From contig JAQTOB010000004.1 in the NCBI GenBank assembly GCA_028713575.1, forward strand, positions 30,001 through 62,000: a stretch of 32,000 nt of DNA, in the 5' to 3' direction. The position numbers and the translations under genes were made by a program. The notes beneath the pieces were generated by a model that saw only the letters and a list, made by a program, of their open reading frames with translations, searched no databases and was not told where the DNA came from. Origin of the DNA: Patescibacteria group bacterium (GTDB lineage: Bacteria > Patescibacteriota > Patescibacteriia > UBA2591 > UBA6264). Shown one piece after another: positions 2,970-28,985 of the stretch; within the stretch, counting starts at the first letter, position 1; every line of letters starts with the position of its first letter.

Positions 2970-3029
2970 GGTATTCAAAAAATGGCTGCTAAAATTCTGT
3001 ATCTCGGAAAAATGCTGGAAAAAATATAG
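2970..3029 (+). pseudogene. Displaced, diverged copy of the last ~20 codons of gatA
   Basis: 2991-3024 (aaaattctgtatctcggaaaaatgctggaaaaaa) matches gatA 2871-2904 (aaaattctgcatctcggaaaaatgattgaaaaat) at 30 of 34 positions. The offset is exactly 120 bp and in the same frame. It encodes GIQKMAAKILYLGKMLEKI* versus gatA GNYFQESKILHLGKMIEKLGL*. Confidence 0.6.
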
Positions 3030-22500: not shown

Positions 22501-25500
22501 ATGAAAATCAAAAACAAAATTTTTAGGAGGGTGAAACAAAAAATCACAAAAATTATTTTTGTTTTTTTAATGGTCGCGACGATGACGGGGAGTTTAACTA
22601 ACATTGCTCAAGCTTATTTATTAGACGCGGTTGATTTGTTAGGACAAATGGACACTTTAGACGAACCGATTTATACGCGAAGCACGCAAAACAATCCTTA
22701 TAGTACCATAGTCAGCAATGCGGTTTTCAACGGCGCGGAAGATGTGAAAATTGATACAGTTCATCACCGTTTATTCGTCGCCGACCGCAGTAACAATAGG
22801 GTTTTAGTTTATGATTTGGACGAAAATAATCAATTTGAACATTATGCCGCTGATTATGTTTTGGGTCAGCCGGATTTTACCACGGTCAGCGCCGGCACCA
22901 CGCAGAGCAAATTCAACGCTTCAAGATATATCGCCTATGATTCCAATCATCAGCGTTTGTTTGTTTCCGAAGAAGAAAATAAACGGGTAACGGTCTTTGA
23001 TTTATCCGAAGGAGTTACCACTGGTATGGACGCTTCTTATGTTCTTGGTCAGCCGGATTTCACCACCAGCGACACTACCACCACTTTATTTGGTTTTGAT
23101 TATTGTTGGGGACTGGCTTATGACTTAGATAATGATTATTTGTATGTGGCTGACGGATCTTCCCATAATCGTATTTTAATTTTTGATGTTGCCCCCGAAG
23201 AAATGTATAACTATAAACCGGCCTTTGCTCATTTGGGCTCTTTGATCGGCACTGCTTTGGACGATTCTCATTTTGAGGGTCCCCATGGCTTGGTTTTGGA
23301 CAAGACCAATGATATTTTATATGCGACCGACACCGACCATCATAGAATAATGATTTTTGATACAGAAGAAATTATCAATGGAGAAAGCGCGATTAATGTC
23401 CTTGGTCAATTAAATTTTACTTCAGATAGCACCAGCACTAGCAGCGTGGGTATGAATTACCCTTATAATGTTGATTTTGATGGAGTTGATGAGCGTTTAT
23501 TTGTTGCTGACGCTACCAATCATCGCGTAATGGTTTTTGACGTTTCTGGGGGAGTGACAGATGGCATGGAAGCCTCTTATGTTTTGGGTCAGATTGATTT
23601 TGACGCCAACAGTTCTGGCGCGACCCAATCTAAATTTAATAAGCCTCGCGGCGTGGCCTATAATTCCGTTACCAAAGAATTATATGTCGGCGATTCAGGC
23701 AATAATCGGATAATGGTTTTTGATTTATCCCAAGGTATTACTAACGGCATGAACGCTTCCAAACTTTTAGGACATACCACGCGCGGCGGCGTGCCGAATT
23801 GGACTTTTACCACTGCCAATCAAATGGGAGCACCTATTGACGACATCGGTTTGCACACGCCCGATAAAGTCCATTTTGATTCTGTCGGGCACCGTTTGTT
23901 CCAATCAGACCAGAACAATAGCCGTATCTTGGTTTATAATTTGGATGAAAATAATAATTTAATTGACCATGTTGCGGATTATGTGATTGGCAGAGATGAT
24001 TTTTTTACCGGCGGCTCGGACAATACCGGTGGCGGTCAAGCCGCTTTTAAATGGCAACATAATTCAATTCTTGATTCCGGGCGTCAGCGTTTATTCGTTT
24101 CTGATTCTTATAATAACCGGATTATGGTTTTTGACATTTCCGAAGGCATCGCCAACGGCATGAATGCGGCTTATGTTCTTGGTCAACCGGATTTTACTTC
24201 TTATGATGCGATTACTACCATTAGTGGCGTTAACGGGCCTCGCGGTTTTGCTTTTGATTCAAGCACTGACCGTTTATTTGTTGCCGACCGCAATAATCAT
24301 CGGGTTTTGGTTTATGATGTGGCGGAAATTGAAACCGGCGAAGACGCAATCAATGTTTTGGGCCAGTCCGACTTCACTAGCAACTCCGCAACCACTAGTA
24401 TCAGTGGCATGGACTATCCTTATGATTTAGCTTTGGACCAAACCAATCAACGTTTATTTGTTATTGACAAGAACAACAACCGAGTGGTTGTTTATGATGT
24501 GGCGGAAATTACTAACGGCGAAGACGCGGTGGCGGTTCTGGGTCAAGCTGATTTTAATTCTAAAATTGATACCGTTGAAGATGTTGAACAAAGGATTCAA
24601 ACCCAAGATAGATTATTTAACACCAGGGGAGTGGCTTATGATTCGGTTAATAATTGGTTATTTGTCGTGGAATACGCCGGTCATCGGGTAATGGTATTTG
24701 ATGTCACGGAAATTGAAAACGGCGAGCCGGCAATCAATGTTTTAGGAGACGAAACTTTTAATACGACTCTTTTGGAAACAATTGATGCCAATGAAAATAC
24801 GAATCGGGTCGCGACTGCCAGCAATTTTTGGACGCCCGAGACAGCGGAAATAGACGGAACCAATAGAAAATTATATGTTAGCGACCAAAATCATAACCGG
24901 ACCATGATTTTCCAATTGCCCAAAATTACGACTGCTTCATTAAGTAATGGCACTGTAGGCGAAGTTTATAGTCAAACAATTTCCGGTACTGGCGGCGCTG
25001 AGCCCTATGTTTGTTCTTTGGTCTCAGGCACTTTGCCCACTGGTTTATCCTTAAACGCTAATTGCACTATTACCGGCGCGCCATCAGCGGCCGGAACAGC
25101 CAATAATCTTGTTATTCGTTTTTCTGACAGTTCAATTACTTCGCCGGAAACAGTCGGCTTATGGCACAACAAAACTTTTAGTTTAACTGTTGACGAGTCT
25201 TTGGCTAACATTAAAATTTCAGCCAAAGCCGAATTAACCGCGGCCTTGGCGACTTATAATCAGGAGGATTACACCGAAGAAAACTGGACAGGTCTAAATA
25301 CTTATAAAACCGATGGCGACACAGCTATTGATGATGCCGAAGATACAGCCGGAGTTACAACAGCTAAAAATACGGCTATCAATGGAATGGCCGGAGTGGA
25401 AACCATTGCTCAAACACTTAAAACAATTACTGCTTTTTCTGTTCCTAATCAAGTTGGCGCGTCAACGATTAATCAAACCGACAAGACAATCAAATTAGTG

Positions 25501-27243
25501 GTTCCGTTTGGCACAGATGTTACTGACCTTGTGGCGTCTTTTACTACTACTGGCGCCTTGGTTAAAGTTAGCGGAGCAACACAAACCAGCGGTCAAACCG
25601 CTAATGATTTCACAAATTCTTTAATTTATACTGTTTCCGCCGTCAATGAGACAACACAGAATTATACGGTTAGTGTCACGGTCTTGACTAATACGCAAAC
25701 CGCCATAGATGATGAGGGCGCTGTTACCATTGATAACAGCACGCCTCAGGCGGTTATTATTAATCCAACTCAGGCAGTCACTGTTGATATTGCCGAAGAC
25801 ACGGAAGGCCCGAGCATTGATGTTAGTTCATTTATTAGTGCCGGAACAGGAACCATTCCTCAAATTACTATTACAGCCGCGAACGCGAATAATGTTAATG
25901 TAGCCATTCCCGCCTCCACCACTGTGACCAGTGCTGATTCGGCTTGGGATGGAGTAATTGCCGCGCCAGTCGTGACCACGGTCACTTTGCCCAATACTTC
26001 AGGAGAAATGAAAACATTAAGCACAGCCATTGAAGTCGGATTCTCCGGTGCCAAATTATCTTTTGATAAGGCGGTTAGGCTATTATTGCCGAACCAAGCG
26101 GGGAAAAGAGTAGGTTACATTAGAACAGGAATTGATTTTACGGAAATAACTTCGGTTTGTGACGCAGACAGCCAAGCGGTTGGCGACCTCTTGTCCGCTG
26201 ACGGTGAATGTAAAAAAGATGTGGGCAATGATTTAGTTGTCTGGACAAAACATTTTACTTCCTTTGCCACTTTTAGCGCGGTTCCTTTGTCTAGTGGCGG
26301 AGGAGGCGGCAGCGCTCCTGTTTTAGTGGGCCCCTCTGATTTAAGTTTAAAAATAAATAATGATGCATTGGAAACTTTTTCAAGAAATGTTGTTTTAAAT
26401 ATTAATGCCGCTAATGCCACGGAAATGTTAGTCGGCGATACTGTTGATTTTGCCAATGTTGATTGGGAAGAGTATGCGAGTTTGAAAAATTGGACCTTAA
26501 CTTCTGGCAATGGAGAAAAAATAATTTATATTAAATTTAGAGACAGCAGTCACAATGAATCTTCTGTAGTTTCCGACACGATTATATTAGAAGAAGAAAT
26601 AGTTGCGGTTGGCGAGGGAAGCTTGGTTAAAACTGCTGATTCTACTGCTTTGTATTTGATTCTTAATGCCAAGCGTCATGTTTTTCCGCACTTGGCCGTT
26701 TATCATTCCTGGTCTTATCCAAATGATTTTTCCACTGTTAAAACAATTACTACTGTTGAATTAAATCAATATCCGGAAGGCGATGCCGTTCCTTTCCGCG
26801 ACGGCTCAATGTTCAGGGGCACGACCCAATCCTTGTATGGTAAATCCGCTTCTGCTGTTTTTTATGTAGAAGACGGGAAATTAAGAGCAGTTAAATCAGG
26901 AGAAATTTATCAGACACTTTTTAATGACCCGAATTGGTCATTAGTCACTTGGGTTCCGGACGACTTGTTGGCCAAGTTTAATTATGAATTGTCTAATGAT
27001 TTAGATTCGTCAGATATCCATCCCAATGGTTCTTTGGTTAAATACCCTGATGCTCCTGCGGTTTACCTGATTAAAAATGGCAAAAAGCAACCCTTTTCTT
27101 CTTGGGACATTTTCGTCGCTAACGGTTATAGTCAAAGGAAGATTTTTGTCATTTCGGCTGAAGAGACCTATGAAACAGCAGAAATAATCAGCAGTTTAGC
27201 CGAATCCCTGACTACGCCAGTCATTGCTGCGATGTATCAATAG
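22501..27243 (+). CDS. Giant secreted surface protein: 12 NHL-type beta-propeller blades, Ig-like and other beta-sandwich domains, and a C-terminal ~190-aa domain shared with the S-layer-like protein
   Basis: 1580 aa with a signal peptide (..VATMTGSLTNIAQA). There are 12 repeats of the pattern hRLFVxDxxNNRvhVaDh followed by YVLGQPDFTS. A cadherin/Ig-like segment (GTVGEVYSQTISGTGGAEPYVCSLVSGTLPTGLSL) follows, then further beta-sandwich-like segments and a Gly linker (SSGGGGGS). Confidence 0.85.
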   Translation: MKIKNKIFRRVKQKITKIIFVFLMVATMTGSLTNIAQAYLLDAVDLLGQMDTLDEPIYTRSTQNNPYSTIVSNAVFNGAEDVKIDTVHHRLFVADRSNNRVLVYDLDENNQFEHYAADYVLGQPDFTTVSAGTTQSKFNASRYIAYDSNHQRLFVSEEENKRVTVFDLSEGVTTGMDASYVLGQPDFTTSDTTTTLFGFDYCWGLAYDLDNDYLYVADGSSHNRILIFDVAPEEMYNYKPAFAHLGSLIGTALDDSHFEGPHGLVLDKTNDILYATDTDHHRIMIFDTEEIINGESAINVLGQLNFTSDSTSTSSVGMNYPYNVDFDGVDERLFVADATNHRVMVFDVSGGVTDGMEASYVLGQIDFDANSSGATQSKFNKPRGVAYNSVTKELYVGDSGNNRIMVFDLSQGITNGMNASKLLGHTTRGGVPNWTFTTANQMGAPIDDIGLHTPDKVHFDSVGHRLFQSDQNNSRILVYNLDENNNLIDHVADYVIGRDDFFTGGSDNTGGGQAAFKWQHNSILDSGRQRLFVSDSYNNRIMVFDISEGIANGMNAAYVLGQPDFTSYDAITTISGVNGPRGFAFDSSTDRLFVADRNNHRVLVYDVAEIETGEDAINVLGQSDFTSNSATTSISGMDYPYDLALDQTNQRLFVIDKNNNRVVVYDVAEITNGEDAVAVLGQADFNSKIDTVEDVEQRIQTQDRLFNTRGVAYDSVNNWLFVVEYAGHRVMVFDVTEIENGEPAINVLGDETFNTTLLETIDANENTNRVATASNFWTPETAEIDGTNRKLYVSDQNHNRTMIFQLPKITTASLSNGTVGEVYSQTISGTGGAEPYVCSLVSGTLPTGLSLNANCTITGAPSAAGTANNLVIRFSDSSITSPETVGLWHNKTFSLTVDESLANIKISAKAELTAALATYNQEDYTEENWTGLNTYKTDGDTAIDDAEDTAGVTTAKNTAINGMAGVETIAQTLKTITAFSVPNQVGASTINQTDKTIKLVVPFGTDVTDLVASFTTTGALVKVSGATQTSGQTANDFTNSLIYTVSAVNETTQNYTVSVTVLTNTQTAIDDEGAVTIDNSTPQAVIINPTQAVTVDIAEDTEGPSIDVSSFISAGTGTIPQITITAANANNVNVAIPASTTVTSADSAWDGVIAAPVVTTVTLPNTSGEMKTLSTAIEVGFSGAKLSFDKAVRLLLPNQAGKRVGYIRTGIDFTEITSVCDADSQAVGDLLSADGECKKDVGNDLVVWTKHFTSFATFSAVPLSSGGGGGSAPVLVGPSDLSLKINNDALETFSRNVVLNINAANATEMLVGDTVDFANVDWEEYASLKNWTLTSGNGEKIIYIKFRDSSHNESSVVSDTIILEEEIVAVGEGSLVKTADSTALYLILNAKRHVFPHLAVYHSWSYPNDFSTVKTITTVELNQYPEGDAVPFRDGSMFRGTTQSLYGKSASAVFYVEDGKLRAVKSGEIYQTLFNDPNWSLVTWVPDDLLAKFNYELSNDLDSSDIHPNGSLVKYPDAPAVYLIKNGKKQPFSSWDIFVANGYSQRKIFVISAEETYETAEIISSLAESLTTPVIAAMYQ

Positions 27244-27264
27244 AATTAAGCCGAAATTCGGTTT

Positions 27265-27840
27265 AAATAAAGAAAAGTCCTCCTATTTTTGAGGGGGTCT
27301 TTTCTTTGTTTTGAGACTCGGTTTCCCGTTGGAAACCGAGTCTCTTCACTTCTTGGTTGTTTTGAGACTCGGTTTCCCGTTGGAAACCGAGTCTCTTCAC
27401 TTCTTGGCTTCCTGTTTAAAGTTCGGTTTCCCGCTTTGCTTCGTAGCGAGCTTTGCTCTGCTACTGGGGCTGGAAGCCGAACTTCTTTATTTTATAAAAA
27501 GCCACTTGGTCTTTAAAGTCCTCCTATTTTTGAGGGGGTCTTTTCTTTGTTTTGAGACTCGGTTTCCCGTTGGAAACCGAGTCTCTTCACTTCTTGGCTT
27601 TGATACTTTGGCGCAATCCCTGATTATGCCGGCTATGGCCGATTTAGCGCAATAAAGCTTCTATTATATATACACTTTGTTTTGAGACTCGGTTTCCCGT
27701 TGGAAACCGAGTCTCTTCACTTCTTGGCTTCCTGTTTAAAGTTCGGTTTCCCGCTTTGCTTCGTAGCGAGCTTTGCTCTGCTACTGGGGCTGGAAGCCGA
27801 ACTTCTTTATTTTATAAAAAGCCACTTGGTCTTTAAAGCC
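27265..27840. repeat. Composite repeat block after the giant gene
   Basis: The ~50-bp unit gttttgagactcggtttcccgttggaaaccgagtctcttcacttcttgg occurs four times (27308, 27358, 27548, 27678). The ~110-bp unit cttcctgtttaaagttcggtttccc...gccacttggtctttaaag occurs twice (27407, 27728). The unit tcctcctatttttgagggggtcttttctttg occurs twice (27278, 27518). Confidence 0.95.
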
Positions 27841-27938
27841 TTTTTTATAGGGAGGTTTGACCCCTTCCTCTTGTTATAAATATTATAAATGTTATAATAA
27901 TTTTCTACTATTTTCGTAAAATTTTCGTATTTCGTAGC

Positions 27939-28469
27939 ATGTTCCACCTCAGAGAGAAAATCCTTTTTCATCAAATTAAAAACGGTGACGAACAGGCCTT
28001 CACCGTCTTTTATAATACCTATAAAGACAGAATTTATCGTTTTATTTATTTTAAAGTTTCTGATCGTGAAAAAGTTTATGATTTGGTTTCCGAAGTTTTT
28101 ATTAAAATATATGATTATATTAAAGAGGGGAATGACATTGATAATTTTCAAGCTTTTTTGTATAAAATCGCTCGTAATTTAGTAATAGATTTTTATCGCA
28201 CTAAAAAAGAGGAAATTTCTTTAACTGATGCGCCGGAAACAGTTTCTCCTATCAATTTAGAAAAAGAAGTGGGAGATAAGGTTGCCGTGGAAAACGTCAA
28301 AAGATACCTTAATAAAATTAAACCAGAATACCGCGAAGCGGTTCATCTTCATTTTTTTGAAAATTTTTCTTTTTCCGAGATTGCGGATATTATCAATCAA
28401 TCCGAAGGCAATGTTAGGATTAGGGTTTATCGCGGCATTAAGCAATTAAAAGAGGTTTTAAGGGGTTGA
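27939..28469 (+). CDS. ECF-type RNA polymerase sigma factor (sigma-70 family)
   Basis: 176 aa with region 2 (YKDRIYRFIYFKVSDREKVYDLVSEVFIKIY, FQAFLYKIARNLVIDFYR) and region 4 (EYREAVHLHFFENFSFSEIADIINQSEGNVRIRVYRGIKQLKE). Confidence 0.9.
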   Translation: MFHLREKILFHQIKNGDEQAFTVFYNTYKDRIYRFIYFKVSDREKVYDLVSEVFIKIYDYIKEGNDIDNFQAFLYKIARNLVIDFYRTKKEEISLTDAPETVSPINLEKEVGDKVAVENVKRYLNKIKPEYREAVHLHFFENFSFSEIADIINQSEGNVRIRVYRGIKQLKEVLRG

Positions 28470-28985
28470 ACCCCTTCTATATGTAGGGGTTCAACCCCCT
28501 CCCCAATAATCGCCATCATAAACTTTTTACACAGGAACTTTTTACACATTTTTACACAGGACATTTTTACACAGGTTGAACCTGTGTAAATTTTCATTTG
28601 CATATTTCACAAAACAAATCCAAAATCCAAAACCCAAATTTTCATAATCACTTGGGAACCGAGTTTCTAAAAAGCAAGAAAGCAAGAGATGGATTCTACG
28701 CTAGAAACTCGGTTTCCCGTTGGAAACCGAGTTTCCTTCTCCCCAATAATCGCCATCATAAACTTTTTACACAGGAACTTTTTACACATTTTTATACAGC
28801 ACATTTTTACACAGCACATTTTTATACATTTTTACACAGGTTGAACCTGTGTAAATTTTCATTTGCATATTTCACAAAACAAATCCAAAATCCAAAACCC
28901 AAATTTTCATAATCACTTGGGAACCGAGTTCCTAAAAAGACATTTTTACACAGGTTGAACCTGTGTAAATTTTCATTTGGCATTT
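28462..28985. repeat. Composite repeat block between the sigma and anti-sigma genes
   Basis: GGGGTT-g-AACCCC at 28462-28474 overlaps the sigma stop codon, and GGGGTT-c-AACCCC lies at 28486-28498. A ~170-200-bp unit (ctccccaataatcgccatcataaac ... cacttgggaaccgag) occurs twice (28498, 28738), plus a partial third copy at 28940. The palindrome TTTACACAGGTT-g-AACCTGTGTAAA occurs three times. Confidence 0.95.

Follow-up and report, generated by a model that had tools for sequence, protein, structure and literature searches.

A stranded gene end of probable sister-lineage type within the hairpin mosaic downstream of a giant surface-protein gene in a Patescibacteria genome

Immediately downstream of a giant surface-protein gene in a Patescibacteria genome lies a mosaic of repeated hairpins, within which a short unique stretch reads like a second end of the same gene. 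The question raised by this locus is where the second end came from, and what part the hairpin repeats played in placing it there. A sequence-only reading of the window, i.e. the whole stretch of 32,000 nucleotides analyzed here, had taken the second end for a fossil of the giant gene's own end, displaced by hairpin elements that insert into gene termini while supplying a replacement end. The source genome (G000) is an assembly of 692 kb in 24 contigs, and all features of the locus described below lie on the forward (+) strand. The giant gene (22501..27243), defined from its open reading frame and translation, encodes 1580 aa. Pfam labels of the protein are NHL, SGL and Lactonase, its body consisting of NHL repeats, and it is conserved with its orthologues only over the last ~270 aa, which constitute the C-terminal domain. 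The present gene end (27196..27243) reads LAESLTTPVIAAMYQ followed by a stop and, by comparison with orthologue tails, is of the family-consensus type. Downstream, the giant gene is followed in order by the mosaic, a sigma factor gene, a 104-aa ORF, a DUF5667 gene and a gene for a surface protein; by Pfam, the neighboring genes encode a PDZ protease, an ECF sigma factor and a DUF5667 protein. The ECF-type sigma factor gene (27939..28469) is the conserved downstream neighbor in all close relatives, and is preceded by promoter-like hexamers (27857..27898), assigned by consensus match only.

The mosaic, which extends from 27244 to 27838, is built from a small set of units. It begins with u1 (27244-27273), a spacer with a small hairpin by its predicted fold that is unique in the genome, followed by T (27274-27306), a terminator-like hairpin and then a run of T. 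Two copies of unit A succeed it (27307-27356 and 27358-27407), each with a perfect 14-bp stem GAGACTCGGTTTCC and the loop CGTT. Unit B (27408-27518) is a long imperfect hairpin that overlaps the second copy of T (27515-27547) by four bases, AAAG. Copy 3 of A (27548-27597) then borders the unique stretch that contains the second gene end (27598-27677), and beyond it the mosaic closes with copy 4 of A (27678-27727) and the second copy of B (27728-27838). Within each of T, A and B, the copies show 100% identity. Elsewhere in G000, the search for these units yielded a single variant of the A hairpin (28704-28735, ~1 kb downstream) and no further copy. Because the units are confined to the giant-gene locus, they are local duplications and do not represent a dispersed mobile element, and the proposal that such elements insert into gene termini is not supported. 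Short A-like or B-like matches occur in 8 of 40 relatives. Rfam searches of the mosaic region and of the whole window returned chance hairpin matches far below the gathering scores, and two tRNAs elsewhere.

The A hairpin itself occurs in several forms. Within the window these are GAGACTCGGTTTCC/GGAAACCGAGTCTC at 27313-27344 and GAAACTCGG…CCGAGTTTC at 28704-28735, and in G002, which belongs to the same genus, the spacer after the giant gene carries GAGACTCAGCCTCC/GGAGGCTGAGTCTC (L002:2325-2356). The stem is maintained by paired changes and the CGTT loop is present in all forms, which suggests selection on the A hairpin itself.

The second gene end, hereafter termed the relic, occupies 27599..27655 and comprises 18 codons and a stop, reading FDTLAQSLIMPAMADLAQ, its 5' side being truncated at the border of an A unit. 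Its last 48 bases (27608-27655) read LAQSLIMPAMADLAQ and a stop, and an AT-rich spacer that is unique in the genome (27656..27677) follows the stop codon. When 27196-27243 is placed against 27608-27655, 30 of 48 bases are identical in an ungapped alignment with the stops aligned, both ends closing with CAA and a stop. The 48-mers as they had been quoted, their count of identities and their common close were all confirmed on the sequence. The core, earlier put at 17 of 20, is slightly weaker, the best 20-nt window holding 16 of 20 identities, and the longest identical run is the 9-nt AATCCCTGA. It was also correct that this is the sole unique stretch inside the mosaic: positions 27598-27676 lie outside all repeat units and are unique in the 692-kb genome.

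It is necessary to establish that a likeness of this size is not fortuitous. The binomial tail for a 30/48 match is 4.6e-8 per offset, and among 5000 dinucleotide shuffles of the gene end, compared with the 695-nt downstream region, none reached 30. When ORF ends of G000 were paired with their stops aligned (123,256 pairs), at least 30 identities had a probability of 1.7e-4. The best partner of the relic among 497 ORF ends is the adjoining giant gene, with 30 identities, the runner-up having 22; and over 1,382,118 genome positions on both strands, neither 48-mer has any match of at least 30 apart from itself and its counterpart. A looser null, in which a gene end is compared with the 800 nt downstream of another gene, gives a probability of 0.0074 for at least 30 identities, a figure that is inflated by AT-rich low-complexity ends, of which kind the giant-gene query is not. 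In addition, a profile constructed from 10 orthologue ends, with G000 left out, ranks the relic 6th-30th of ~0.7 million six-frame positions. The resemblance of the two ends exceeds chance, and the segment 27599-27655 is a genuine 3' terminus of the giant-gene family that has been left stranded on the far side of repeat units. The relic is non-functional, displaying no sign of retained function. Its RNA structure does not exceed that expected by chance (z = 0.03), in which T, A and B differ from it, and neither the ORF list nor the neighboring genes contain an ORF alongside it. The 114-codon frame at 27311-27655 was considered as a gene and rejected, as it crosses hairpin units and varies in length by strain (82 codons in L032).

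The relic was recovered in a second contig as well. L032 (JGI 3300037067, Ga0378408_0000398) is a 98.8-kb contig from another sample, assembled independently, which carries the same giant gene together with an identical 79-nt unique stretch between A units. The order of units is T-A-A-A-unique-A-B in L032 and T-A-A-B-T-A-unique-A-B in the window. Contigs L031 and L033 of other assemblies break inside the repeats. The relic is thereby shown to be present in a second, independent contig, which speaks for its being real DNA. In the near-identical strain represented by L032:1-3918, the giant gene is called as two products, one of 1274 aa and one of 305 aa, with their boundary at L032:3001, a split call that may reflect a frameshift, a stop or a sequencing error.

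Which of the two ends is native to the gene can be considered with the aid of the orthologues. Over the C-terminal ~260 aa, orthologues were found in 40 of 41 related genomes, and the order of giant gene then sigma gene is kept. Tails of the LAE(S/T)LxTPVIAA type terminate the orthologues in G002, G004, G014, G009 and G018 and proteins P0004-P0021; all 10 genome loci and 18 database proteins that were collected carry this type, and the present end of the window is therefore taken to be the ancestral, consensus end of the family, its type being common to about 30 orthologues, including those of other genera. The present end is also unique sequence located outside every repeat unit, and thus no repeat unit supplied it. 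The claim that the elements furnish a replacement end is accordingly not supported on either count. A search downstream of the orthologues L002-L010, L034-L036 and L041 for something equivalent to the relic was negative, ungapped matches reaching 21-22/48 at best. Relatives with short spacers likewise lack such a sequence; in G004, for example, the spacer of ~120 nt contains a terminator and one small palindrome.

A counterpart was obtained at the end of a gene, in a single sequence. The metagenome locus Ga0172371_10031713 (L034) has the gene order giant gene, sigma, DUF5667 and is devoid of the mosaic; relative to G000 its C-terminal domain is 73% identical and its sigma factor 82%. The working end of its giant gene reads LAQSLVMPVMAALTR and a stop. 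Over the last 48 bases, the relic and L034 share 38 identities, the present end and L034 share 28, and the relic and present end share 30. The value of 38 exceeds the maximum of 36 over the 123,256 other ORF-end pairs of G000. Homology between the relic and L034 continues for three further codons (FDT vs IDS, 5/9 bases) to 27599 and stops at the border of the A unit. It can be observed that among the 20 sites at which the present end and L034 differ, the relic agrees with L034 at 13, with the present end at 5 and with neither at 2, a modest count given that the relic is only 57 nt long (one-sided binomial about 0.05). When decay of a copy of the present end was simulated by 18 random changes in 200,000 trials, identities to L034 averaged 20 and reached at most 32, against 38 observed. 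Differences between the relic and L034 are distributed over codon positions as 3/3/4, as even as expected of a dead copy, while those between the present end and L034 are distributed as 5/4/11, mostly at third positions. The identity of 79% between the relic and L034 is close to the nucleotide identity of the sigma genes of both genomes, 78.3%. On the strength of the 38/48 match, the 13-versus-5 sites, the decay simulation and the spread over codon positions, the relic is best read as the tail of an L034-type allele and not as a decayed duplicate of the present end. The idea of a fossil of the giant gene's end consequently stands in modified form: the relic is a true 3' end of the family, of 18 codons at 27599-27655, but of the L034 type and not a copy of the present end. 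Most orthologues do end in the upstream type, but one that lacks the mosaic, L034, ends in the fossil type and so provides the relic with its counterpart. Further L034-type tails were absent from a 5.8-billion-protein set, from 21 species genomes of the family and from the family and order relatives searched, and among all sequences searched L034 alone carries such a tail as a gene end.

Several other explanations were weighed against this assignment. One is that a downstream copy was made of the final 48-57 nt of the present gene, for instance by a long target duplication or by slipped hairpin repair, and then decayed to 62% identity. G000 does make such copies, as exemplified by the perfect tandem triplication of a gene end and its terminators at C8:29501, and units T, A and B have likewise been duplicated on the spot. 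A decayed copy of the present end would nevertheless be expected to resemble L034 far less than the relic does, the simulated copies averaging 20 and never exceeding 32 (200,000) where the relic has 38/48, and the flanking repeats are 100% identical where the relic is at 62%, so that the two did not arise from one event. Local duplication is therefore regarded as improbable. The two ends were also rejected as a target duplication, since of the 20 differing sites the relic shares 13 with L034 and 5 with the present end. Two related candidates were also discarded. As a diversity-generating retroelement pair, the ends would not fit, adenine standing in the downstream copy at only 3 of 18 mismatches and no reverse transcriptase gene being present in the neighborhood; as the product of a transposon or MITE with target-site duplication they fail likewise, there being no dispersed copies and the flanking ends not both being derived from the target.

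Phage 21 and e14 integrate at icd in E. coli, carrying a substitute gene end, and the locus could be viewed as the footprint of a comparable site-specific element in the 3' end of the gene, the relic being the original end at attR and the 364-nt mosaic the remains of the element. The geometry has that appearance: the present end is followed by 364 nt of hairpin DNA that looks foreign and then by the end of another allele type, and both ends contain the identical 9-nt core AATCCCTGA; and a pgk-like gene of the same genome has a similar geometry with a 29-nt identical core followed by divergence. Against this, the insert (27244-27597) consists of hairpin units only and the Pfam labels of its neighbors include no recombinase, the units of the insert occur at no other genome site, and the shared core amounts to only 9 nt. 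Moreover, a Q codon that the relic has in common with L034 is situated left of AATCCCTGA, the supposed core, by which the whole relic looks like one allele, and the supposed substitute end is the family consensus. An integrative origin is given about as little credence as local duplication. Least probable of all is a fortuitous likeness or an assembly chimera, in which a scrap of an L034-like population was spliced between identical A repeats. It is true that G000 is a metagenome-assembled genome, that L031 and L033 break inside the repeats and that at least one other duplicated end of the genome, on C9, is an artefact of scaffolding across a run of N. The shuffle, ORF-end-pair and whole-genome statistics are nonetheless opposed to chance, the identical 79-nt stretch between A units recurs in L032 from another sample, and the real gene end of another population would have coding sequence on its left in place of an A unit.

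The favored explanation is that the relic is the remnant of a second, divergent version of the giant gene, of L034 type, which was probably stranded by displacement recombination, the hairpin units being duplicated locally afterwards. The locus is indeed one at which versions are exchanged. The bodies of the giant proteins are <30% identical among G000, G002, L034, L035 and G004. Relative to G000, the sigma factor of L035 is 52% identical and its C-terminal domain 73%, a contrast that points to horizontal exchange of the C-terminal domain. With likeness confined to the last ~270 aa, unrelated bodies and such contrasting values for L035, the giant-gene locus shows swapping of gene versions by recombination. 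In a direct comparison of window positions 22501-26400 with L002, L003, L034 and L035, the bodies were unrelated and the last ~270 aa were 68-78% identical. The domains of the body differ as well, NHL repeats in G000 and, in most relatives, 2300-aa proteins with CarboxypepD_reg-like or SdrD-type domains. No recombination breakpoint was found, the sliding nucleotide identity being flat over the last 900 nt of the gene. For the sigma gene, G000, G002 and L034 form a trichotomy, with nucleotide identities of 78.3, 78.3 and 77.0% and 21, 15 and 14 informative sites.

As to the mechanism and direction of the recombination, we infer the following course. One version of the giant gene would displace another at the locus, with a homology anchor on one side and an illegitimate joint on the other, that is, by homology-facilitated illegitimate recombination or by an equivalent insertion and deletion. 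The illegitimate joint would be situated at the border of the A unit, 27597/27598, where at most 3 nt of microhomology (CTT) can be found, which is of no probative weight. After the displacement, T, A and B would duplicate locally to produce the present mosaic. A precedent is documented for polymorphic effector loci, in which homology-facilitated illegitimate recombination displaces effectors and shifted 3' ends remain behind (PMC5361080). Regarding the provenance of the relic, three possibilities are considered. It may well be the former resident end, which is tentatively placed foremost. That it is an imported scrap, anchored on the sigma side, is rather unlikely, and that it is the tail of a lost tandem twin is a little less likely again.

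Copies of gene ends occur elsewhere in the genome. A copy of the last 48 bases was sought within 800 nt downstream of 540 putative genes, and five cases were obtained: the giant gene, gatA, a pgk-like gene on C7, a triplication on C8 and a scaffold artefact on C9. A systematic search thus does return the two cases from which the earlier proposal had generalized, in a list of five out of 540 genes of which one is an artefact. The end of gatA (2871-2906) is copied 120 nt downstream at 2991-3026 with 32/36 identities, two TTTTGGAGACCAGGTCTCCAAAA palindromes being located between the copies. This second end is also found in assemblies L081 and L082, with a differing number of palindrome copies, and the palindrome family surrounds a RAYT-like gene at C4:64180-65092, ~6.5 kb downstream of the giant-gene locus. 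The giant gene had been described as following the same pattern as gatA; the geometry is common to both, but at the giant gene the repeats are neither agents nor suppliers of ends.

The pgk-like gene (C7:8803-9051, L057) ends in …GGGAMLEFMEGKVLPGIRPLLGK and a stop, followed by a 185-nt insert and a second copy of the end, …AMLEFMEGKILPGIRPLMKT and a stop. The two copies are identical at 35/48 bases, or at 56/75 with a 29-nt identical core and the stops aligned. In relatives, enolase directly follows pgk. A dispersed repeat with further copies at C1:35734, C2:1793 and C6:3155 makes up the final ~65 nt of the insert. Tails of gatA and of the pgk-like gene vary too much among relatives to place either copy nearer to them. 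At C8:29452-29840, a perfect tandem triplication (one mismatch) comprises the last ~50-65 nt of a gene and two terminator-like hairpins, showing that segments spanning gene ends have recently been duplicated in tandem in G000 or in its assembly. On the minus strand of C9 (9243-10046), an identical gene end and terminator stand on both sides of a run of N, most likely because a scaffold gap was left unmerged and not for any biological reason.

If the preferred reading holds, the relic would be direct physical evidence of an exchange of versions with a sister lineage in an uncultivated bacterium with a tiny genome. It would furthermore be a dated marker, the relic and the sister's functional end (79% identity) having diverged as far as the sigma genes beside them. 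The notion of hairpin repeats as insertion elements that bring new gene ends is corrected by the same results. Together with the second ends at gatA and the pgk-like gene, the relic suggests that intergenic DNA keeps more recombination scars than the reduced genome size implies. A bolder generalization is that hairpin arrays after stop codons mark the one-anchor splicing of DNA from related lineages, native ends being routinely displaced and left behind as relics, and that the giant gene, gatA and the pgk-like gene represent one recurrent process. It is speculative and is held to be unlikely. If true, turnover of gene ends could be one of the main ways in which bacteria dependent on DNA uptake exchange alleles.

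Comparison with known systems places the locus more precisely. Like REP/REPIN sequences mobilized with RAYT (Y1/HUH) transposases, the hairpin units gather just after stop codons. Unlike them, the A hairpin is not dispersed, having four copies and one variant 1 kb away and none elsewhere; REP insertion, moreover, involves no target duplication of tens of bases and leaves a relic of a foreign allele unaccounted for. Islands at the ends of tRNA and other genes duplicate the gene end at attL and attR, with a substitute end. As with such att-type elements (phage 21, e14), two non-identical ends bracket an insert and the upstream version keeps the gene intact. The present locus differs from them in having no integrase, a 364-nt insert of locally duplicated hairpins, a 9-nt core and a single site.

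The closest likeness is to displacement in Rhs, CDI and T6SS loci. The 'C-terminal displacement' of Rhs leaves orphaned 3' fragments (Jackson et al. 2009, PMC2935791, to the extent that it is cited in PMC5361080), and effector-immunity modules of the T6SS are sequentially displaced in Vibrio cholerae (PMC5361080). In all of these, a large variable gene for a surface or secreted protein is followed by a promoterless, 5'-truncated 3' piece of another allele. The allele type of the stranded piece is also in use elsewhere, here in L034, and the origin proposed is recombination with incoming DNA that is homologous on one side and illegitimate on the other. The systems differ in which part varies: Rhs and T6SS genes have a constant 5' part and a variable, selected 3' tip with an immunity gene, whereas in the giant gene the C-terminal domain is conserved and the body varies. 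Rhs and T6SS orphans are also hundreds of codons long, whereas the relic has 18 codons and is without a partner gene. The event is nevertheless of a kind already known from orphaned 3' fragments, of which the 57-nt relic is a small further example.
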